Below the pieces are notes generated by a model, which was given only the letters and a program-made list of their open reading frames with translations, had not been told where the DNA came from and made no database searches. From positions 23,790 to 87,789 of the forward strand of contig QIBA01000056.1 in NCBI GenBank assembly GCA_003225175.1: 64,000 nt of DNA, given 5' to 3'. Source of the DNA: Acidobacteriota bacterium. GTDB lineage: Bacteria; Acidobacteriota; Terriglobia; Terriglobales; Acidobacteriaceae. Both the position numbers and the translations under genes were made by a program. Positions within the stretch are counted from its first letter, which is position 1. Each line of letters begins with the position of its first letter. This document shows, one piece after another, positions 1 to 43,122 of this stretch.

Positions 1-244
1 AGGAACCGCGGCTTACGCCACCCAGCTATGTATTTTGTTTTGCGGGAGCGCCGAGGAATCGGCTAGTACGACCGAAGCGACGCCCTATAGCAACCGCGCC
101 AACGTTCTGGTAACGGTTGCCCGCTTAGCGTTTTAATTGTGAAATCCGCCAATTCGGGCGTCCTTTCGTAAGAAGATAATTCAAGATGCCATGAGTGCGA
201 GATTTTTGCAAGACCAAATTGAACGGAAGAAAGGCGAACGCGAA

Positions 245-535
245 GGTCACGAAGTCAAAAGAAAAGGTCACAAAGAAAGCTTCGTGACCTCATCTGTTTC
301 CTTCGTGACCTTCGTGTTCGCTCCTGGTTTTGAAGTACTCAATCTCCCCCATGAGACAGCGCCGCCGTCCGCTCCAGCTTTTCTCAGGAAAACGCGCGGC
401 CATCGATCGCGCGCTTGATGGTCTTGAATAGCACCGCTGAGAGCACCTGGCGGTACGTGAAGCGCTGGATCCACATATCCGCCAGGAGCCAATAATCTTC
501 GTGCTGTCGCGGATCGCGGCGTTCTAACGCAGATG
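245..535. repeat. Direct repeat copy A (~290 bp). Truncated duplicate of the last ~195 bp of the 1380..4820 gene plus ~95 bp of its downstream region
   Basis: Manual alignment of 245-535 with 1285-1575 gives ~17 mismatches over ~290 nt (~94% identity). Similarity stops abruptly at 535 and 1575. Confidence 0.8.
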
Positions 536-593
536 CCGACATTGATTTCGCCATCAACTAGTTGATAAACTGGTCTATGGAAAAGAAAGCACA

Positions 594-836
594 ATGACTA
601 CCGTAGGCGCCTTTGAGGCAAAAACAAAGCTGAATGCTCTTCTCAAGAAAGTTGCAAAAGGGGAGACGATTCAGATCACTCTCCGCGGCGTTCCGGTGGC
701 GAAGCTTGTTCCTGCCGGTTCTGAGGAGGCGCAAGATCCGCGCGACATCGTGCGTGACATCCGCGCGCTCAGAAAAGGCGTGACGCTGGGAAAAATACAG
801 ATCCGGGATTTAGTCAGGGAGGGGCGACGACATTAG
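594..836 (+). CDS. Type II antitoxin, Phd/YefM (VapB-like) family
   Basis: 80-aa protein (MTTVGAFEAKTKLNALLKKV...) typical of prevent-host-death antitoxins. Sits immediately upstream of a PIN-domain ORF. Confidence 0.75.
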   Translation: MTTVGAFEAKTKLNALLKKVAKGETIQITLRGVPVAKLVPAGSEEAQDPRDIVRDIRALRKGVTLGKIQIRDLVREGRRH

Positions 837-852
837 GCACACCAAGAGGCTG

Positions 853-1254
853 GTGCTTGACGCGTCGGTCGCCGTCGCTTGGTGTTTTGCAGACGAGGCT
901 ACCTCCTTTACCGACGGAATTCTTGACCTGCTGGCAAACGGAACGACGGTGATGGTCCCGGCGCTTTGGCCGCTTGAGGTGTCGAATGCCATATTGAGCG
1001 CCGAACGCAAGAAGCGGCTTACGGTGGCGCAGGCTACGGCATTTCTTCGTCGCGTGTCGGGACTTCCGATCTCACTCGACGCGATGCCGCTGGGGCATGC
1101 CTTCAGCGAAGTTCTCTCTGTCGCACGGCAGCACCAGCTTACGGCATACAACGCTGCATACTTGGAACTCGCACTTCGCCAAGACCTTCCCCTGGCCACT
1201 CTCGACGAGCCCCTTCGACGTTCCGCGCGGGCTGCCGGCGTGGCGCTGATGTAG
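853..1254 (+). CDS. vapC: PIN-domain ribonuclease toxin VapC
   Basis: 133-aa PIN-like ORF starting with GTG at 853, 17 bp after the antitoxin stop. Classic two-gene TA arrangement. Confidence 0.7.
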   Translation: MLDASVAVAWCFADEATSFTDGILDLLANGTTVMVPALWPLEVSNAILSAERKKRLTVAQATAFLRRVSGLPISLDAMPLGHAFSEVLSVARQHQLTAYNAAYLELALRQDLPLATLDEPLRRSARAAGVALM

Positions 1255-1284
1255 GTCAACCCCCGCTGAACGAGGCGAACACGA

Positions 1285-1575
1285 ACGTCACGAAGTCAAA
1301 AGAAAAGGCCACAAAGAAAGCTTCGTGACCTCATCTGTTTCCTTCGTGAGCTTCGTGTTCGCTCCTGGTTTTGAAGTACTCAATCGCCTCCATGAGACAG
1401 GGCCGCCGTCCGCTCCAGCTTTTCCCAGGAAAACGCGCGGCCATCGATCGCGCGCTTGATGGTCTTGAACAGCACCACTGAGAACACCTGGCGGTAGGTG
1501 AAGCGCTGGATCCAGATGTCGGCGAGGAGCCAATAATCTTCGTGCTGGCGTGGATCGCGGCGTTCCAGGGCGAAG
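1285..1575. repeat. Direct repeat copy B (intact copy, continuous with the EPS synthase gene 3' end)
   Basis: Same alignment as copy A. This copy runs uninterrupted into the 1380..4820 reading frame. Confidence 0.8.
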
Positions 1576-4500
1576 GCTAGTGATGACGCGAGGAAATCGA
1601 TGATCAGGAAGCTGACGAAATAGATCACCAGCTTCTGGAAGGTTGCGGGATTGGCGGCGTAGGGATGGAAGTGGCGATCGATCAGATACCAGACTGCGCT
1701 TACGATGAACATTACATCGATCAGCGGCGAGACCAGTGGAAGCATGATCTGGAAGATGACGATGTTGGGGAGCGCGAACCAGCCTAGCGCGCCGCGGCGG
1801 AGCAAAGCTCCACGGTTTTTCCAGACGGCCTGGAGAATGCCGAACGACCAGCGGAAGCGTTGGCGCATCAGGCCGCGGGCGCTTACCGGGGCTTCGGTGT
1901 AGGCTAGCGCGCGGTCTTCGTAGATGACGCGGTAGCCGCTGCGCAGGATATTCATTGTGAGATCGGCGTCTTCGGCTACGGTGATGGCGTGATAGCCGCC
2001 GGCTTTCTTCACGATCTCGGTGCGCCATGCGCCCAGTGCGCCGGGGACGACCGTGACGGCGCCGAGCAGGTCGAGCGCGCGGCGCTCGAAGTTCTGGCTG
2101 GTGATGTACTCGAGAGCCTGCCAGCGCGTCCAGATATTCACGCGATTTCCCACTTTGGCATTGCCGGCTACGGCGCCGATGCTGCGATCGGCAAAATGCG
2201 GAATCAGGCGGGCGATGGCTTCGCGGGCGATTACCGTATCGGCGTCGATGCCGATGTAGAAATCTTCGGTCACCTGCTCGAGGCCGTAGTTCAGGGCTTC
2301 AGCTTTGCCGGAATTGGGCTTGGTGAGAACTACTACTTTCCCGGCGCTAATTTCATTTTGGAACTTGCTGGTGGCGATCTCGAGCGTCCGATCCTTCGAG
2401 CCGTCGTCAATGACGATCACGCGCAGGTTGCGATAGCTCGACGCCAGCACCGAGCGAATCGTGCGCTCGATGACTTTTTCTTCGTTATACGCGGGGATCA
2501 ACACTGCGACCGCCGGCCTGAAGGCGGGATCGAGGTTTTGCGACGACGAGCCCCGAATGCGGTCGATGGTGGCGAGCGCGCCAATAATAAGGAGGCGTCC
2601 GGTCATGAGGATGTCGCCGAGGAAGAAGATCATCTGCACGCCGATGAGGACGATGCTGAACATCCAGAAGGCCAGGTTATCGACGCGCGCTGCCCACACT
2701 TCGCGCGGCGTGGTGAGCGGCGGCATCACCTGGGCGCGGGTCTGGTCGATGAGTTTCGAAACGGGAACGATCTCGTAGCCGCGGGCGCGGATGCCGTCGA
2801 TGATCAGCGGGAGGGCTCTCACGGTCTGCGAGCGGTCTCCGCCGCCGTCGTGAAGAAGAATGATGTTGCCCTTGTCGAGATCTTTGAAGACGTTTTCGGC
2901 GATCTCGGCTGCGCTGTAACGCGGGCTTAGCGACCAGTCGCTGGGGTCGATCTTGTCGCCCACGGTGATGTATCCCATGTCCTGGGTGAGCTCGAGCGGC
3001 TTGACTTCGTCGGCGGTGTCGGGCTCCTGGTCGATCGAGTAGGGCGGGCGGAAGAAGATCGGCTTTACGCCGAGCTTCGCAGCGAATAAGCGCTCGGTAA
3101 CGTTGATTTCCTTTTCGAAACGCCACGTGGAGATTTCGCTGATGTTGGGATGCGTGAGCGTGTGGTTGCCGATCTCGTGGCCCTCGTCGTTGATGCGCTT
3201 TACCAATCCGGGATCGTTCTCGGAGGGAATGCCGATGAGGAAGAATGTGGCGGGCGCGTGCTTGCGCCTGAGTATGTCGAGTATCTGCGGGGTGTAGGTT
3301 GCGTCGGGACCATCGTCAAAGGTGATCGCGATCTTCTTCTCTTTATAACCGTAAGCTTCGAGTTGATAGGGATTCGGCAGCCTGGTGAAGTGCTCGTCGG
3401 TGACGAGTTCCGTATCGGGATCGACCGTCACCACGCGCTTGCCCGGCGAGGGACGCTGCATGATGCGCAGGATCTCGCCCTGTCCTTCGATGGAAACATC
3501 CGGACCAGGGGGAACTTCGGCGAGTTTGGTTGCGGGATCGGAGGCGCGAGGCTTGTCCCAGATCTCCCAAAGTGAACGATCTTCGGAGCCGAGGCGCCAC
3601 AGCGCAAATGTCCGGATGCCGAGATTGCGCGCGGCGCGCATTTGATTCAACGCGGTGACAGCGTCGAGAAACCAGATCTGATGCGTGGTGCCGTCATCTT
3701 CGTCATACGCGAAGTGGGGATTCAGTGAATCGGAATCGAGATCGATAGGCGTTTCGGATTCGGCGGAACGAATCCACGCATCCTGCACGGAGAGGTTGCA
3801 GACGTTGGAGTGAGTGCCTTCAGGACACTCGACCGGCTTGTTGCCCCACTCGTATCCGTAATTTCCGATGGCAACGATGAGTTTGTCTTTGGGAATAACT
3901 TTCAGCGCCTTCTGAATGTTGCCGACAAAGAAGCTGTGACTGGCGACCGGTCCGGCTTTGCTCTCCGACTGGTGCTCGTCGTAATTCATAAGGATGAGGC
4001 CATCGGAGTTGTCGGCGAGGTACTTGTAGTTGAAGTCGTCGTCATCGGCGGGGACGTTGATGTACATCTTCAGTCCGCGGGAGTGGAGGTCGGCGGCCAT
4101 CTCGCCAATTAGCGCGTTGAAGCCGGGCTGAGCGGTGCGGGGAAAGTCCTCAAAGTCGACGGAAACGCCCTTGAACTTGGCGTCGGAAGAGAGAAAAGTG
4201 AGCAGTTGATGGCGGAAATTTGCGCGTCCATCGGCGTTATCGAAGAAGTCTCCGACGTTGTGAAGCCATTTTCCCGAAACGGGATCAAAGTTATTGACCA
4301 GCGGAAAGACCTCGACGTCCGCCTTGGTTTGGCGAATTAGCGGCATCACCTGGTCGTCAACCTGGTGAATTGAAGTGCCGCTAACGACGTCGAACATCTC
4401 GTTTGTGAGCGCGTCGGAGCCTTGCATGCGTCCGTCGGGCGTCAAAACGTGCAGCCATTCGGGGTATAAAAGGTCGATTTGACGAAGATATTCCTTCAGT

Positions 4501-4820
4501 GAAGAGTAACTACCTTTGTCCCAGGTGACGTAAAAGGCTGCGCGTAAGCCTTCATCTTCGTTTAATGGAACCTGGGAAGGCGGCTTTTTGGTCTTGCGAT
4601 GCGATCCGTGAGCGGCTCCAGCATGCTTTTTAGTGTCGCGCACAGGCTTATAAGCGCGCTTGATTTCCGGCCAAATCGTCTGCGGTAAGGCTTCAGAACG
4701 CAGCGCTGTGTACATAAAAACGGCGGCGACAAGCGTTATTACGAGCCCGGAAAGGCGCAAAAGCAGGCGCAGATTACGCCATCGCTTGAGTTGTGGGTCG
4801 TAAAAAACCGGCTTGGCCAT
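1380..4820 (-). CDS. Multidomain exopolysaccharide synthase. N-terminal TM anchor, GH18-like (beta/alpha)8 domain, CE4 NodB-type polysaccharide deacetylase, TM segments, processive family-2 glycosyltransferase (PgaC/NodC/chitin-synthase-like) with C-terminal TM channel region
   Basis: CE4 motifs TFDDGP, GNHTLTHP, FFRPPY, IILLHDGGG. GT2 motifs VIVIDDGS, GIDADT, AEDADL, QRFRWSFG (QxxRW). N-terminal domain has YVTWD...SVDFEDF resembling the GH18 DxDxE region. Hydrophobic helices at N-terminus, between CE4 and GT2, and at C-terminus. Confidence 0.85.
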   Translation of the reverse strand: MAKPVFYDPQLKRWRNLRLLLRLSGLVITLVAAVFMYTALRSEALPQTIWPEIKRAYKPVRDTKKHAGAAHGSHRKTKKPPSQVPLNEDEGLRAAFYVTWDKGSYSSLKEYLRQIDLLYPEWLHVLTPDGRMQGSDALTNEMFDVVSGTSIHQVDDQVMPLIRQTKADVEVFPLVNNFDPVSGKWLHNVGDFFDNADGRANFRHQLLTFLSSDAKFKGVSVDFEDFPRTAQPGFNALIGEMAADLHSRGLKMYINVPADDDDFNYKYLADNSDGLILMNYDEHQSESKAGPVASHSFFVGNIQKALKVIPKDKLIVAIGNYGYEWGNKPVECPEGTHSNVCNLSVQDAWIRSAESETPIDLDSDSLNPHFAYDEDDGTTHQIWFLDAVTALNQMRAARNLGIRTFALWRLGSEDRSLWEIWDKPRASDPATKLAEVPPGPDVSIEGQGEILRIMQRPSPGKRVVTVDPDTELVTDEHFTRLPNPYQLEAYGYKEKKIAITFDDGPDATYTPQILDILRRKHAPATFFLIGIPSENDPGLVKRINDEGHEIGNHTLTHPNISEISTWRFEKEINVTERLFAAKLGVKPIFFRPPYSIDQEPDTADEVKPLELTQDMGYITVGDKIDPSDWSLSPRYSAAEIAENVFKDLDKGNIILLHDGGGDRSQTVRALPLIIDGIRARGYEIVPVSKLIDQTRAQVMPPLTTPREVWAARVDNLAFWMFSIVLIGVQMIFFLGDILMTGRLLIIGALATIDRIRGSSSQNLDPAFRPAVAVLIPAYNEEKVIERTIRSVLASSYRNLRVIVIDDGSKDRTLEIATSKFQNEISAGKVVVLTKPNSGKAEALNYGLEQVTEDFYIGIDADTVIAREAIARLIPHFADRSIGAVAGNAKVGNRVNIWTRWQALEYITSQNFERRALDLLGAVTVVPGALGAWRTEIVKKAGGYHAITVAEDADLTMNILRSGYRVIYEDRALAYTEAPVSARGLMRQRFRWSFGILQAVWKNRGALLRRGALGWFALPNIVIFQIMLPLVSPLIDVMFIVSAVWYLIDRHFHPYAANPATFQKLVIYFVSFLIIDFLASSLAFALERRDPRQHEDYWLLADIWIQRFTYRQVFSVVLFKTIKRAIDGRAFSWEKLERTAALSHGGD

Positions 4821-9206: not shown

Positions 9207-10508
<1,302 letters not shown>

Positions 10509-10595
10509 TCAAGTTTGGTCAGGAGGACTGGGGACTCGGGTGATCGGGCCATCGGGTGCCCGATCACCCGATTCTTAATTTACAATTCGCTCGCA

Positions 10596-12245
10596 ATGAA
10601 ATCTCGATCTCGTCTTTTCCTGGCTCTCAGCTTCTTCCTAATCGCTCCCGCCTTTGGCTCCGCCTATCAGAATCGTCCCAAACTGATCGTAATAATCATC
10701 ATCGATCAATTCCGCGGCGACTATCTCGAACGCTACTACAATCGCTTTGGCGAAGGCGGCTTCCGCCTGCTGATGGATCACGGCGCCAATTTCACTGACT
10801 GCCACTATGACTACGCAAATACCCACACCGCTCCTGGACATGCAACCTTGTTTACCGGAGCGTACTCGGATGGACATGGCATTGGCGGGAACGAGTGGTG
10901 GGATCCGGCGCTGCGCAAAGTCGTAACCTCGGTCGAAGACAGTCGTTACCAGACGCTTAAGCCCGGTGGATCAAACGAGACCGGAGTCTCGCCGCATAAT
11001 TTGCTTGCCGACACAATCGGCGACGAGCTGCGACTCGCCACTGCTGGGAAGTCGCGTGTCTTCGGAATTTCGCTCAAAGACCGCGCCGCTGTTCTTCCTG
11101 CCGGCTACTCCGGCAGCGCCGCCTATTGGATTGATCACGAAGATGGCGCTTGGGTGAGTTCGAGCTACTACATGAAGTCTCTGCCACCGTGGATTGTGGC
11201 ATTCGAAGCGAGCGGCCCAACCAAAAAATATTTAGATAAAGAGTGGAAGGGAGCAGATGGTTCGGTTCTCGACAGCACTGCGCCCGCCATGAACGCTGCC
11301 GGACAACGACTCGGATTTTACGATCTGGTGGGCAAGACTCCGTTTGCCAACGATTATGAGTTCGACTTCGCCAAAGAACTTATCCGGCAGGAAAAGCTGG
11401 GCAGTGGATCGACGACGGATTTCTTGAGCGTCAGTTTGTCGGCAAACGATATCCTTGGACATCGCGTAGGACCTGACAGTCCCAAAATGGAAGCGATGGC
11501 TCTGGCGCTTGATCGCGAACTGGCTGAGTTCTTCGCGTTTCTCAAGCAGCAGGTAGGCCTCGAAAACGTTTGGATCGCTCTCTCCGCTGATCATGGCATC
11601 GCGCCGCTTGTGGAAAGCGCACAGACAATGCATGTTCCGGCAGCACGGCTGAACTCAGCCGGCATGGCTCAGGAAATTAATTTGAAACTGGCAGAGCGGT
11701 TTCCTCAAGCCACAGGCGGACCACGCTGTTTGCGACCTGAAGACGCCAAGCTCTGGCATCGCGAGAACACGCCGGACTTCGTAGCATCAATAAGCTGGCC
11801 GATTGCTTATCTTTGCAAAGACGATTTCGACGCTCTAAAGATCAATGAAGCGCAAGCCGAGCAAACAGTGGGCGAGGTTTTCAAGCAGCTCGGCTCCTTG
11901 CCGGCCGTTTATACACGGACGCAGCTCACGGAGGGCGCGGTCCCTCAGACCTCTTATGGGAAGCAGTACCTGCACAGTCGCGCAGAATACGGCGGGTGGT
12001 ATGTATTAGGCGAGCTGCCGCCCTTCGTCGTAGGCAACGCCACCGGGACTGACCACTCTACGCCTTACAGCTACGACACTCATGTCCCACTCGCGTTCTA
12101 CGGCACTCCCTTCAAGCCGGGAACATATCGTTCCCATGCGGAACCAGTGGACATGGTTTCGACGTTTAGCACGCTGCTCGGCATCGAGCGGCCGACGCAC
12201 TCGATTGGTAGAGTGCTCACGGAGGCCCTGAGCACGTCGCGATGA
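10596..12245 (+). CDS. Alkaline-phosphatase-superfamily (type I phosphodiesterase/nucleotide pyrophosphatase-like) secreted protein
   Basis: Signal peptide MKSRSRLFLALSFFLIAPAFG, then IIIIDQFRGDYL...HYDYANTHTAPGHATLFTG metal-site motifs. Start chosen at ATG 10596 (the listed ORF extends to 10464, overlapping serS). Confidence 0.7.
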   Translation: MKSRSRLFLALSFFLIAPAFGSAYQNRPKLIVIIIIDQFRGDYLERYYNRFGEGGFRLLMDHGANFTDCHYDYANTHTAPGHATLFTGAYSDGHGIGGNEWWDPALRKVVTSVEDSRYQTLKPGGSNETGVSPHNLLADTIGDELRLATAGKSRVFGISLKDRAAVLPAGYSGSAAYWIDHEDGAWVSSSYYMKSLPPWIVAFEASGPTKKYLDKEWKGADGSVLDSTAPAMNAAGQRLGFYDLVGKTPFANDYEFDFAKELIRQEKLGSGSTTDFLSVSLSANDILGHRVGPDSPKMEAMALALDRELAEFFAFLKQQVGLENVWIALSADHGIAPLVESAQTMHVPAARLNSAGMAQEINLKLAERFPQATGGPRCLRPEDAKLWHRENTPDFVASISWPIAYLCKDDFDALKINEAQAEQTVGEVFKQLGSLPAVYTRTQLTEGAVPQTSYGKQYLHSRAEYGGWYVLGELPPFVVGNATGTDHSTPYSYDTHVPLAFYGTPFKPGTYRSHAEPVDMVSTFSTLLGIERPTHSIGRVLTEALSTSR

Positions 12246-23470: not shown

Positions 23471-26155
23471 GTGAGAAACCGACGATCTTTATCGATGGTG
23501 AACAGTCAGCTATTGGTTTTTCTACTCTCGCTCGTACAATGCTCCGCACTTTTCGCGCAACAATCTAACTCGGATTTCCCTTACAAGAATCCTGACCTGC
23601 CGATCGCACAGCGCGTTGATGACCTGATCTCTCGAATGACGCTCGAAGAGAAGGTCTCGCAGCTCGGCCACACCGCAGATGCCGTTCCCCGATTGGGAAT
23701 TCCTGAGTACAACTGGTGGAACGAAGGATTGCACGGCGTAGCGCGAGCTGGTAATGCCACCGTCTTTCCGCAGGCGATCGGCATGGCGGCTACCTTCGAC
23801 GAGTCCTTAATGCATCGCATCGGAAATGTTATTAGCACGGAATTTCGGGCGAAGTACTATCACGATCAGCATCCCGACGGCAGCACTGACTGGTATCGCG
23901 GTCTGAGCATCTGGTCTCCAAACATTAACATCTTTCGCGATCCACGCTGGGGGCGCGGCCAGGAAACTTACGGTGAAGATCCGTTCCTGACTTCCCGAAT
24001 GGGAATTGCATTTGTCACTGGTTTGCAGGGCGACGATCCCAAATACCTGAAAACAGTTGCCACTTCCAAGCACTTTGCTGTCCACAGCGGACCGGAGCCA
24101 ACTCGGCACAGTGTCGATGTTAAGGCCTCGCGTCATGATATGGAAGACACCTATCTTCCCGCATTCCGCGCAACCGTGGTCGAAGCCAAAGCGCAGTCGG
24201 TGATGTGCGCGTACAACTCACTCAACGGCCAGCCGGCCTGCGCGAACACCGATCTGCTCGAAGAGCACCTGCGGCACGATTGGGGTTTTCAAGGATACGT
24301 AGTCTCCGACTGCGGCGCGGTAACGGACATCTTCAACGGGCATCACTTCAGCAAATCCATGGAAGAAGGCGTGAGTGTGGCGCTCAAGACAGGCACCGAT
24401 CTTATCTGCGGCAATCCCCGCTCGCGCGTAAAGACTGAGCGCGACGCGATACTCCAAGCGGTTCAGCAGGGCCTGATGACTCAGGCCGATCTGGATCGTG
24501 CTCTGCGTCGATTGTTCTCAGCGCGTTTTCGTCTAGGCATGTTCGATCCTCCCTCGCTGGTGCCCTATTCCAACATTGCTTTTGAGGATAACGACAGCGA
24601 AGCTCATCGCCAGCTCGCGGTGCAAGCCGCGCGTGAATCGCTCGTCCTCCTGAAGAATCAGAACCACTTTCTGCCACTCGGGAAGCGGTACTCAACGATC
24701 GCAGTGATTGGTCCGGACGCAGATAATCTTGATGCCCTGGTCGGCAACTACAATGGAACGCCGTCCAGGCCGGTGACGATCCTCGAAGGCATTCGCCGCC
24801 GCTTTTCACAATCGAAGGTGATTTACGCAGAGGGAACAGGTCTTACTGGACCTGTGATGCATGCCATTCCTTCCGACGCTCTTTTCACTGACAATTCCCG
24901 AAGAGAGCATGGGCTTAAGGGAGAGTACTTCGCAAACGTCGAGTTGAAAGACGCGCCGGTCATGACTCGCACTGATAGCACGGTGAACTTCGCCTGGGGA
25001 GATCAGGGAATTTCGCCGCAGTTGCCGAAGAACTATTCCGTACGCTGGACCGGCGTTCTCGTTGCACCGCAAACTGGCGACTACCTGATCGGATTCGCTG
25101 GCCAGGACGGATTCCGTCTTTGGGTGGATGATCAGTTGATCGCGGAAGAATGGACGATTCATCATCCTGCCGACACATTGACGAAGCCGATGCACCTCGA
25201 GAAGGGCCACGCGTATAAGGTTAAGATCGAGTATTTCCAAACGATTCGCAGCGCTGAGGCGCGCTTTGTCTGGAGCATGCCGGGGCAAGACGGGAAGGAT
25301 GCTGTCGATGCCGCGCAGCAGGCCGATCTCGTCATCATGGTGCTCGGTCTCTCGCCACGCATTGAAGGCGAAGAGATGAACGTTCACACCGAAGGATTCG
25401 CCGGGGGAGATCGCACCAGCCTCGATCTACCTGCGCCGCAACAAAAGCTTCTTGAACGAATTCACGCGATCGGCAAGCCGATCATTCTGGTGCTCACGAG
25501 TGGAAGCGCGGTGGCCGTAAATTGGGCTGATCACTATATTCCCGCGATTCTTCAATCCTGGTATCCGGGAGGGGAAGGTGGAACGGCGGTCGCGGAGGCG
25601 ATTGCCGGAGACTTCAGTCCCAGCGGCCGGTTGCCGATAACGTTCTACAAATCGGTTCTTCAACTTCCGCCATTCGAGGACTACTCAATGGCCAACCGAA
25701 CCTACCGCTACTTTCGCGGCGACGCTCTGTATCCCTTCGGATACGGCCTGAGCTACACAACGTTCGCATATCGCAACCCGGAGGTCGACAAGCAGAGCAT
25801 CGCTGCCAATGAGTCGGTGACGATCTCCGTCGATATCGCCAACACCGGCCGGAGAGAAGGTGATGAGATCGCGCAACTATACATAACCCATAACGGGATT
25901 GCCGGAGCGCCTCTGCGTGCATTGCAAGGCTTTCAGCGTGTACATTTAGCGCCAGGCGAGCAAAACAGGGTTTCGTTTAGGCTGCGGGAGCGCGATTTGA
26001 GCGTTGTGGATCAAGATGGGAAACGCCGTATTATTCCCGGAAAGGTCAACGTGTGGATCGGTGGAGGACAACCCATAACGGTGCCGGGCAGGCCCCTGCC
26101 CCCTGGAGCGAGAGCGCAGTTCACAATCACGAGTGAAGCAACTTTGCCCGACTAA
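23471..26155 (+). CDS. GH3 beta-glucosidase/beta-xylosidase with inserted PA14 domain
   Basis: 894 aa. GH3 motifs KHFAVHSGPE and GYVVSDCGAV. PA14-like insertion GLKGEYFANVELKD...WTGVL. C-terminal Fn3-like domain. Confidence 0.9.
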   Translation: MRNRRSLSMVNSQLLVFLLSLVQCSALFAQQSNSDFPYKNPDLPIAQRVDDLISRMTLEEKVSQLGHTADAVPRLGIPEYNWWNEGLHGVARAGNATVFPQAIGMAATFDESLMHRIGNVISTEFRAKYYHDQHPDGSTDWYRGLSIWSPNINIFRDPRWGRGQETYGEDPFLTSRMGIAFVTGLQGDDPKYLKTVATSKHFAVHSGPEPTRHSVDVKASRHDMEDTYLPAFRATVVEAKAQSVMCAYNSLNGQPACANTDLLEEHLRHDWGFQGYVVSDCGAVTDIFNGHHFSKSMEEGVSVALKTGTDLICGNPRSRVKTERDAILQAVQQGLMTQADLDRALRRLFSARFRLGMFDPPSLVPYSNIAFEDNDSEAHRQLAVQAARESLVLLKNQNHFLPLGKRYSTIAVIGPDADNLDALVGNYNGTPSRPVTILEGIRRRFSQSKVIYAEGTGLTGPVMHAIPSDALFTDNSRREHGLKGEYFANVELKDAPVMTRTDSTVNFAWGDQGISPQLPKNYSVRWTGVLVAPQTGDYLIGFAGQDGFRLWVDDQLIAEEWTIHHPADTLTKPMHLEKGHAYKVKIEYFQTIRSAEARFVWSMPGQDGKDAVDAAQQADLVIMVLGLSPRIEGEEMNVHTEGFAGGDRTSLDLPAPQQKLLERIHAIGKPIILVLTSGSAVAVNWADHYIPAILQSWYPGGEGGTAVAEAIAGDFSPSGRLPITFYKSVLQLPPFEDYSMANRTYRYFRGDALYPFGYGLSYTTFAYRNPEVDKQSIAANESVTISVDIANTGRREGDEIAQLYITHNGIAGAPLRALQGFQRVHLAPGEQNRVSFRLRERDLSVVDQDGKRRIIPGKVNVWIGGGQPITVPGRPLPPGARAQFTITSEATLPD

Positions 26156-39216: not shown

Positions 39217-39341
39217 TCAAATCCTTCGCTGTCACAAAGTAAACCAAAACTGAAGCAAGAGGCTACACAGTTGCCTTCGTGCCCTCCGCCTTTATTCTTC
39301 CTTTATCCTTCGTGACATTAGTGTTCGCTCCTTCCCGCCGT

Positions 39342-40888: not shown

Positions 40889-43122
40889 CTACTTCACTTC
40901 CAGGGGGACCGAGGTCAGGTCAGCGGAGTTGGGACCAACCATGATCTTGAAGGTCCCTGGCTCAACTATGCGCTTCATCTCACGATTGTAGAAAGGCAGC
41001 TCTTCCGGCCCAATCTGGAACGTCACCGTGCGAGTCTCGCCTGCCTTGATTGAGACGCGCTCGAATCCTTTTAGCTCTTTGATCGGACGTGTAACCGAGC
41101 TAACTTCATCGCGGATATACAACTGCACGACCTCATCGCCGGCACGGCTGCCTGCATTTGTCACGTCAACCGATACCTTCGCCGTTCCGTTTACAGAAAT
41201 CGAGCTGGGCTCGACTCGCACATTGCTGTAATTGAACTTTGTGTAGCTGAGTCCATAGCCGAACGGAAAGAGTGGAGAGTTGTCCGTAAATAAATAAGGA
41301 CGGCGCGCCGATGGCTTCTGATAATAGTAGTCAGGCAGTTGACCAACGGAGCGCGGGACCGTAATGGGGAGCCTGCCGGCAGGATTGTAATCGCCGAATA
41401 GAATCTCGGCCATGGCAATACGCCTAGAGCGAGGAGGCGGGAGACCAGCTCGTCTTGTCGTCCGAAGAGATCCAGGTTGTCGCGATCGCCCAGATGGTTA
41501 TTCGACCATCCCTCCCGCGAGGTTTGTTCGTTCTCTCCGACAACCACAATTCCGATATCGGCTTCTGACAGCACTTCGACGGCGTCGCTGATACGTTTTT
41601 CATCCAGCTTAGGAACGGCCGGCACTACTTTGTCTTCTTCCCAAACCGGTTTGCTCTCCGTGATTCGGCACCCTTCCGCATACAGTACCTCGGCTCTGCC
41701 GCCTACTCTGTTCTTGATTCCTTCGAGGATGCTGACATCGTGACGCGGCGTTCCGCTGTAACCACCAAGGTGAGGCTCACCCGCGTTTGGGCCGATCACA
41801 GCGATGCGTTTGAACTTTGCCAGATCAAGCGGAAGAAGCTGGTTATCGTTCTTGAGCAGAGTGATGGCCTCGCGCGCCGCCTGCAGAGCGAGTTCCCGAG
41901 CCTGTGCAGGCGAAGCGGACAGCACCGCCATCTGCGAGTCTGCGTACGGTTTTTCGAACAAGCCCAATTCGAATTTTGCTCGCAGGACTCGTGCCACCGA
42001 TTCGTTGATGAGTGACTCAGGAATCTGGCCGCTGCGCACGAGGGATGGCAATGTCTTGTAGCAACGCAAAAACGGGAGTTCAATGTCGACTCCTGCAGTG
42101 ATCGCCAGTTTCGCAGCCTGCTCGCAGTTTGCGGCGACATGATGGACGGTTATCAACTGCTCAATGGCGAAATAATCAGAGACCACCAGATTCTTAAAAC
42201 CAAACTCGCCCCGCAAGACGTTGCGCAGCAGCCAGGTGTTGCTGTGATTGGGAATGCCGTCAAGCTCGTTGTAAGACGGCATGATCGCGCGTGCATTGCC
42301 CTTGGCAATTCCGGCTTCAAATGGAGGGAGAAAATATTCGCGCACCGTGCGCTCGGAATAATTCGCGGGAGCCACATTCGCTCCGGCCTCAGGCTGACTG
42401 TGCACCGCGAAATGCTTCAGTGTGGCAAAGACATGATTGGCATCTACCGTCGGACCGTCGCCCTGCAAACCCTTGACCGCAGCGACTCCCATTCGGCCGG
42501 CAAGATATGGGTCTTCGCCGTAGGTCTCCTCAGTGCGTCCCCAACGTGGATCCCGCGCCAGATCCACAACGGGCATCAGGCACTCATGGGCACCTCGAGA
42601 CCGCGCCTCCCGAGCAGTGGCATCAAAGATGCGGCGCACGAGTGCGTCATCCCAGCTGGCAGCGAGCCCAATCGCCTGGGGATACGAAGTCGCGTCGGCC
42701 GCCACAAGGCCGTGCAGGCACTCTTCATGAAACATCAGCGGAATTCCTAATCGCGTGCTCTCAACGGCGATCCGCTGCAGCCGATTCGTGAAGTCCGCCA
42801 TTTCACGCGGCCCGCGATTCTCGCTCGGTCGAGTAACTTGTCCTAAACCATTTCTTAGCAGCTGCCGGGCTTTGGCCTCGTTAAACTCGCCTTTCTCATC
42901 AACGAAGAATTCTTCAGGAAGAAGATCCTGCGAATGGTTTTGCCAGGTCGATTCGAGTTGCGCAACTTTCTCTTCCAGAGTCATGCGGCTTAGCAGGTCA
43001 GTGACGCGCGTCTCGATCGGCAAGGCCGAATTTTTGTAGGACGGCATTGTTTGCTGGGCACCGAGAGCAGACAAGAAAAGCACGCAGACAATTACTATCC
43101 AAAAGTCTCTCCGACGATTCAT
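40889..43122 (-). pseudogene. GH3 beta-glucosidase gene disrupted by an internal deletion/frameshift (ORFs 41191..43122 and 40889..41413 are in different frames)
   Basis: The upstream ORF carries the GH3 catalytic domains (KHFAVHSQPEAG, VVSDYFAIE). The downstream ORF starts at (A)IAEILFGDYNPAGRLPITVP, the Fn3-like C-terminus. About 38 residues expected between ...LLALG and ...AIAEILFGDY (compare the intact GH3 at 23471) are missing, and the frames differ. Confidence 0.6.

Follow-up and report, generated by a model that had tools for sequence, protein, structure and literature searches.

A phd-vapC operon inserted with a long target duplication at the 3' end of a polysaccharide synthase-like gene in an uncultured Acidobacteriaceae bacterium

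Introduction

Insertion with long target duplication was defined for restriction-modification (R-M) gene complexes (Nobusato et al. 2000, Gene 259:99; Furuta, Abe & Kobayashi 2010, NAR, PMC2853133). The present work concerns a comparable arrangement in a stretch of 64,000 nucleotides from an Acidobacteriota bacterium of the family Acidobacteriaceae (GenBank assembly GCA_003225175.1, contig QIBA01000056.1, positions 23,790 to 87,789; this whole stretch is referred to as the window), in which a small phd-vapC toxin-antitoxin (TA) operon lies between two imperfect direct repeats, copy A and copy B, at the 3' end of a polysaccharide synthase-like gene. The movement of chromosomal TA operons is poorly understood.

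In the long-target-duplication class, the repeats are longer than 30 bp, the insert is shorter than 20 kb, no other mobile genes are present and the repeats align to a single copy at the empty site (PMC2853133). Published repeats range from tens of bp up to ~420 bp and often span the start or the stop of the flanking gene (PMC2853133). Furuta et al. suggested that DNA breakage by the restriction enzyme is involved, and a cycle of insertion, repeat-mediated amplification and release was proposed (PMC2853133). The word "toxin" is absent from that paper, and no report of TA cargo in this layout was found in the literature searched.

The locus described here has a single-copy empty site, a duplication of 293 nt and an insert of 748 bp without mobile genes. 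As with the R-M insertions, a small addiction-type complex lacking mobility genes is flanked by long imperfect repeats which span a stop codon. However, the cargo is a type II TA pair (a Phd/YefM antitoxin and a PIN RNase) and not a set of restriction and modification genes, and the locus is accordingly placed as a variant that falls outside the first definition of the class. DNA breakage of the kind attributed to the restriction enzyme is not to be expected from a PIN RNase; furthermore, the repeat halves at this locus have a swapped ancestry, a feature which was not analysed in the R-M papers.

The locus is interpreted as an integrase-free insertion with long target duplication; to this reading, a probability of roughly 0.75 is assigned. 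If correct, the class is extended from R-M complexes to a second kind of addiction module, and since breakage by a restriction enzyme cannot apply to a PIN RNase, the case points to host recombination, together with selection for harmless insertions, as the common cause. Because both the occupied and the empty site are known, the insertion event can be reconstructed. This is a single case from uncultured bacteria and is to be regarded as a lead for a systematic survey, not as a general result.

Occupied and Empty Sites

The occupied arrangement was found in 11 independently assembled contigs spanning the locus at 99.5% identity or more (from ENA and Joint Genome Institute (JGI) soil metagenomes), which indicates that it is not an assembly artefact. 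A scan of JGI metagenomes with the conserved core of the hairpin that follows the synthase gene contributed two empty sites (L107 and L110) and three occupied ones (L111, L106 and L108).

At three empty sites in a 93%-related species, namely L093 (with a synthase 93% identical to that of the window), L107 and L110, the synthase end, the hairpin, a spacer (here called U) and a gene for an AAA ATPase follow one another, with a single copy of the gene end and no TA pair. Positions 9823-10366 of L093 align to the occupied gene together with copy B, while positions 10035-10614 of the same contig align to copy A together with U. Since both copies with their outer flanks align to one empty-site stretch, the insertion comprised the operon together with a second target copy, and by alignment the event reads as gene-A-U becoming gene-B-X-A-U, where X is the inserted DNA at 525-1272. 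The single gene end at these sites bears out the proposal of an earlier sequence-only reading of the window that an insertion had occurred at the synthase 3' end, and its view that the duplicate kept the gene intact with the TA pair as cargo also holds: the 1146-aa gene is intact and the insert contains only phd-vapC.

A single copy was seen in every relative examined, comprising the three empty sites above, L092 and L109 (93%), L094 (91%), L012 to L014 (82-84%) and 77 more distant loci; in 80 reference Terriglobales loci (synthase 56-84% identical) no second gene end, TA pair or AAA neighbour was detected. Among the relatives examined, the TA pair at this locus is restricted to the species of the window. 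These observations bear on the possibility that the occupied state is ancestral and that the empty sites are secondary deletions through the repeats, so that loss and not gain is being observed. The identical runs within the repeat pair, which reach 44 nt, would ease such deletions and would regenerate a clean single copy; nevertheless, with every relative examined being single-copy and the TA pair confined to one species, this is the least probable of the explanations considered. Were it true, the same insertion-with-duplication event would just be placed earlier.

An empty allele within the same species was sought through the neighbouring PMT_2 protein, and this search returned only occupied contigs and L105 (ENA ERZ27285802 k141_2380352, positions 1-400). 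This contig, from the same species, has an identical PMT_2 neighbour and a different synthase 3' end (called as 1152 aa). It is without the hairpin and continues into unrelated downstream DNA, the divergence beginning about 100 nt ahead of the stop. On this evidence, the synthase 3' end is a strain-level recombination breakpoint. In another contig, L108 (JGI Ga0066678_10264033, positions 1-520), an occupied-type copy A and spacer are joined to TROVE-like fragments in both orientations with no AAA gene, which represents either a rearranged strain or a chimeric assembly.

Structure of the Repeat Pair

The direct repeat occupies positions 232-524 and 1273-1565, with 275 of its 293 nt identical (93.9%) and a start-to-start spacing of 1041 nt. 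The identity of ~94% given by the sequence-only reading is thus upheld, and its coordinates (245-535 and 1285-1575) are right in essence, the true position lying ~12 nt to the left. Within the 64-kb window, no other direct repeat reaches 40 nt. This, and the fact that the hairpin-core scan matched only this locus and its orthologues, indicates that it is not a dispersed genomic repeat.

Copy B consists of the final 186 coding nt of the synthase gene and 107 nt downstream, and the protein encoded through it terminates in SHGGD directly before the stop, as do its orthologues. Whether copy A also holds the synthase frame had been raised as a check by the sequence-only reading. The frame is preserved with zero indels relative to the synthase, but it is interrupted by a premature stop (Table 1) at a position where copy B and all orthologues have TGG, and it carries three missense changes besides.

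The edges of the repeat fade and have no sharp end. Positions 525-545 still match the native gene at 13 of 21 nt (P about 5e-4), so that the degenerate extension of the repeat reaches about 545 and possibly also, on the other side, about 217. From the residual match at 525-545, the original duplication was at least ~314 nt.

An open reading frame (ORF) of 57 aa at 384-557 on the minus strand, which several assemblies call as a gene of 56 aa, joins 11 codons of the insert's left edge to the pseudo gene end in copy A. This ORF shares sequence with the phd operator, and its transcription would diverge from the TA promoter region. This ORF is probably spurious.

The Inserted Operon

The two genes of the insert lie on the same strand with a gap of 16 nt, the Phd/YefM gene being upstream of the PIN gene, which is the arrangement of type II TA systems; the Phd and PIN pairing is also present in the loci of five relatives. 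Homology at the DNA level to these TA relatives is confined to ~548/556-1254, from the operator to the vapC stop. Sequence belonging neither to the TA family nor to the target amounts to ~10-30 nt at the left edge and does not exceed 18 nt at the right one. The inserted cargo, as delimited by these comparisons, is a bare operon. The ends of the insert showed no inverted repeats, and its G+C content (57.6%) matches that of the window (56.0%).

The closest VapC proteins outside the species share 71-79% aa identity and each has an 80-aa Phd partner. They occur in unrelated neighbourhoods with no flanking direct repeats, and neither a donor locus nor a repeat-flanked TA copy elsewhere was found among the nearest VapC relatives. 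A search of solved structures with the VapC sequence returned no match, and no NCBIfam model fits the toxin.

The locus resembles other chromosomal VapBC-type TA systems with Phd/YefM antitoxins in having an 80-aa Phd, a 16-nt gap, a 133-aa PIN protein, a conserved repeated operator and scattered relatives. It differs from them in that its mode of arrival can be reconstructed, which is rarely so elsewhere, and in that an Asn replaces the third catalytic Asp in the allele of the window. Codon 100 (1150-1152) is AAC, encoding Asn (TAY[N]AAYLELA), while the residues D3, E42 and D118 are kept. Asp100 was found in 16 of 16 aligned homologues and in 8 of the 10 population contigs compared, which have G at 1150; A at this position occurs in the window, L002 and L005. 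Asn100 probably inactivates the toxin and segregates as an allele within the population, part of which may already have an inactive VapC. With regard to the predicted operator, its first half-site is invariant in four TA copies. The second half-site (567-576) is degenerate in the window (AAACTGGTCT) and three relatives carry a conserved AGACTAGTTG; the degenerate form could affect autoregulation.

Absence of an Integrase

Genomic islands and prophages are known to integrate at the 3' ends of genes and to supply a replacement gene end. The present locus shares several features with such integrase-mediated elements, namely the site at a gene 3' end, the gene kept by a duplicated end, the border repeats and the TA cargo. 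The sequence-only reading had proposed an integrase-type element with a foreign gene-end mimic, the remainder of which would lie upstream of position 1. Under this explanation, the repeats are attL and attR, and the integrase is either upstream of the window or deleted. It can draw on the integration habit just described and on cargo bracketed by direct repeats; in addition, TA pairs are common cargo of islands (PMC2654758).

Several observations make this explanation highly improbable. With the repeats taken as its boundaries, the element is confined to the 748 bp between the copies. In the three empty sites, the single hairpin is directly followed by the spacer U and the AAA gene, and thus what lies upstream of copy A is native flanking DNA and not the rest of an element. 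Gene and Pfam tables covering 10 kb upstream and 10 kb downstream were surveyed in 10 longer contigs from this organism and listed no tyrosine or serine recombinase on either side. None of the genes called in the upstream 10 kb has a domain of a recombinase or transposase, and the uncalled gaps in this region are all shorter than 800 nt, leaving no room for a missed recombinase; on the other side, the downstream region shows core synteny with relatives. With no more than ~30 and 18 nt of filler at the two edges, a reduced element would need two deletions which both ended nearly at the edges of the operon. The ~300-nt repeats are native and fade at their ends, with no sharp common core. Finally, the hairpin and the gene end are native to the clade and several synonymous states of copy A are found in working alleles of the same species, which does not agree with a mimic brought in by a foreign element.

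The integron gene cassette was also considered and rejected, as the hairpin at the empty site is that of the target and there is neither an IntI integrase nor an array. A transposon was likewise rejected.

Divergence of the Repeat Copies and Route of Insertion

The 18 differences between the copies were polarised with L093/L107/L110, L092/L109, L094 and L012-L014, and 16 of the sites could be polarised. From coding sites 15 to 141, copy A is derived at eight (15, 18, 45, 48, 51 I>M, 82 F>L, 89 V>A and 141 W>stop) and copy B at one (69), sites 42 and 96 being ambiguous. In the second block, which begins at coding site 165 and takes in the hairpin, six sites (165, 177, 180, nc30, nc71 and nc94) are derived in copy B and none in copy A, with nc99, derived in copy A, as the exception. 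The contrast between the two blocks (8:1 against 0:6 derived sites) gave Fisher p values of 0.0014-0.009 with a post-hoc boundary, and a runs test gave p 0.036.

Third codon positions account for 12 of the 14 coding differences (p 8e-5), an excess which indicates that most of the divergence arose in functional genes. At sites 15, 18, 69 and 96, the states of copy A are shared by working alleles from further contigs of the species (L008, L105 and L006/7/10), L105 having those at coding sites 15 and 18, and the copy-A state at site 42 is present in L092. The third-position bias, together with these five states in working alleles, indicates that copy A came from a functional allele other than the present copy B. 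Six changes are unique to copy A; four are non-synonymous and two synonymous, matching the expectation for neutral decay. The coding part of copy A is therefore best described as derived from another functional allele and decayed since. The divergence of 6%, which the sequence-only reading had taken to argue against a recent simple tandem duplication, resolves by this site analysis into allelic variation, pseudogene decay and a swapped block, and offers no simple clock.

According to the proposed explanation, a minimal phd-vapC operon (promoter/operator to stop codon, 748 bp) entered the synthase 3' end with a second target copy of ~300 nt, made up of the last 62 codons and the terminator hairpin. 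The agent would be host recombination, neither an integrase nor a transposase being required. With regard to the route, a single homologous crossover is tentatively preferred, at a little short of even odds. The crossover would have taken place between the resident gene end and circular or looped DNA of ~1.04 kb which bore the operon along with the target copy of a related strain. Copy B would then consist of the resident 5' part and the incoming 3' part with its hairpin, and copy A of the incoming 5' part and the resident 3' part with its hairpin, continuous with the native U. Its position would fall in the interval from coding site 141 to coding site 165. The mosaic of the copies agrees with what a single exchange of this kind with a ~1-kb circle would leave behind, and is suggestive of it. 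This scheme is like the Campbell-type integration of suicide plasmids, which gives a target-insert-target order with copies chimeric around the crossover and so would fit the block pattern, but the presumed circle is here just ~1.04 kb and has no replicon or marker. Recombination between the present repeats would free the same circle, and host RecA alone could both excise and re-insert it.

A second route, possible but on balance unlikely, belongs to the same class and differs in its sub-mechanism. It supposes that the operon entered at a long-staggered break or through a hairpin-stalled template switch, that fill-in duplicated the target, and that both copies were native and identical at their origin. 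The 6% would be of later origin, built up as copy A decayed, as synonymous sites drifted and as recombination with other strains replaced the allele of the working gene. The hairpin foot, where stalling or breakage is plausible, is within a few nt of one edge of the repeat, and the ratio of 4 non-synonymous to 2 synonymous changes unique to copy A suits neutral decay. Allelic recombination into copy B is seen in L008 and, at site 69, in L006/7/10, and the R-M literature pictures the class in the same way. However, the six derived changes of copy B from site 165 to the hairpin end, as against none or one in copy A, are left unexplained (about p 0.06 alone), and several later events are needed where the crossover requires one.

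The insertion by host recombination, and the crossover route in particular, have to be weighed against a number of observations. Site nc99 is derived in copy A and breaks the block pattern, and nc30 is polymorphic between the copies, with copy A of L108 having the copy-B state. The block boundary used in the Fisher test was picked after the data had been seen, from just 16 polarised sites. Copy B of L008 matches the L105 allele, so that allelic recombination within copy B is directly visible, and in-place duplication combined with allele replacement and chance could give a similar picture. No circle, excision product or donor locus was observed, and the nearest VapC outside the species is just 79% identical. 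The VapC allele of the window itself bears the change of a catalytic Asp to Asn. Lastly, the class was defined on R-M cargo and its mechanism was itself left open (PMC2853133).

The duplication would preserve both neighbours and so make the insertion harmless. Copy B would leave the synthase complete with its terminator, which also stands at the end of the convergent vapC, while copy A would leave the native hairpin and spacer before the AAA gene, with only its gene fragment decaying. The sparing of both neighbours is probably the reason why the insertion has persisted. An intact gene would be regained if the repeats recombined, with deletion, downstream of coding site 141; VapC activity following loss of the operon would select against such deletions, and the killing of operon-losing cells, by analogy with known TA systems, would favour retention.

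A broader and doubtful extension of the crossover scheme is that bare TA operons spread as enzyme-free, homology-armed cassettes, by way of a ~1-kb circle of operon and one hybrid gene end which is integrated by RecA in a related strain. If this were true, the swapped ancestry of the repeat halves would be the footprint of one cycle, and the life cycle proposed for R-M long target duplication would require no DNA-cutting cargo.

The Hairpin Downstream of the Synthase Gene

Both hairpins are predicted to fold stably on the synthase strand, at -56 to -61 kcal/mol with z-scores of -7 to -9. The inner stem and a T-run form a predicted intrinsic terminator on this strand (291-264 in copy A), and the hairpin is predicted to be the terminator of the synthase gene. 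It is also located 3' of the synthase stop in the other 93% relative (L092/L109), which shows that it is native to the clade. It was considered as a dispersed element of the repetitive extragenic palindromic (REP) or miniature inverted-repeat transposable element (MITE) type or as an attC site, and this was rejected because the hairpin-core scan of JGI metagenomes matched only the locus and its orthologues. An Rfam search of the hairpin gave only generic or miRNA-type hairpin matches below threshold.

A compensatory change in the copy B hairpin was considered and likewise rejected: its two arm changes sit in neighbouring pairs, not in one pair, and the stem is thus weakened. An insertion of ~25 nt was observed within the outer left hairpin arm at ~10255-10285 of L093 (also in L107 and L110), and another of ~25 nt between the stop codon and the hairpin at ~11442-11466 of L092 (also in L109). 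By the evidence of these insertions, the stretch directly after the synthase stop codon is indel-prone. The window's only other match to the hairpin is weak, being an intergenic half-copy of the arm motif (CCTTCGTGcC...CCTTCGTGACaTTaGTGTTCGCTCC) at 39270-39330.

Target Gene, Flanking Genes and Minor Observations

The coordinates of the features of the locus are given in Table 1. Orthologues of the synthase are equal to it in length and share 56-93% identity, and a GH18 domain was also scored in synthase homologues. Upstream of copy A, the spacer U of ~615 nt (its part within the window being 1-231) is followed by the AAA ATPase gene, which is BCS1-like. In the longer contigs, this is followed by genes for a TROVE/VWA protein, a FAD oxidase, a rhomboid protein, a methyltransferase and a CTP-transferase. 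On the other flank lie PMT_2, a LolA-like gene, a response regulator and seryl-tRNA synthetase, in an order conserved in relatives.

Table 1. Positions of the target gene, the repeat copies and the inserted operon in the 64,000-nt window.
Feature	Coordinates	Strand	Description
Target gene	1380..4820	(-)	Intact 1146-aa fusion, Polysacc_deac_1 + GT2 (Pfam); poly-N-acetylglucosamine (PNAG)- or chitin-synthase-like
Repeat copy A	232..524	(-)	Displaced, decaying synthase 3' end (pseudo-coding 339-524) and terminator hairpin
Repeat copy B	1273..1565	(-)	Working synthase 3' end (coding 1380-1565) and terminator hairpin 1275-1362
Hairpin, copy A	234..321	(-)	88 nt, 42-nt arms, 4-nt loop; dG -60.8 kcal/mol, z -9.4
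Hairpin, copy B	1275-1362	(-)	88 nt; also at end of convergent vapC
Premature stop, copy A	384..386	(-)	TGG>TGA, codon 47 of the 62 duplicated codons, 15 codons before natural stop
Inserted DNA X	525..1272	(+)	748 bp, phd-vapC operon only; absent from empty sites
Predicted operator	553..576	(+)	Palindrome ATCAACTAGTTGAT (553-566) overlapping two ACTAGTTG-type half-sites
phd	594..836	(+)	Phd/YefM antitoxin, 80 aa; PF02604 39.1 bits (cut-off 29.8), TIGR01552 31.4 (20.8)
vapC	853..1254	(+)	PIN-domain toxin, 133 aa; PF01850 26.6 bits (cut-off 23.6)

A scan of 1.77 Mb of related DNA for short segments bracketed by repeats found only two cases, neither of them a TA pair. At 16030-17121 of L038, a secreted protein of 234 aa lies between 129-nt repeats (92%), and at 12969-14408 of L014, a short-chain dehydrogenase lies between 142-nt repeats (81%). 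These could be further long-duplication insertions or dispersed intergenic repeats. The window also contains an inverted repeat at 23936-24039 and 42452-42555, of 104 nt and 73% complementary, with its arms 18.4 kb apart, which may reflect paralogous genes.

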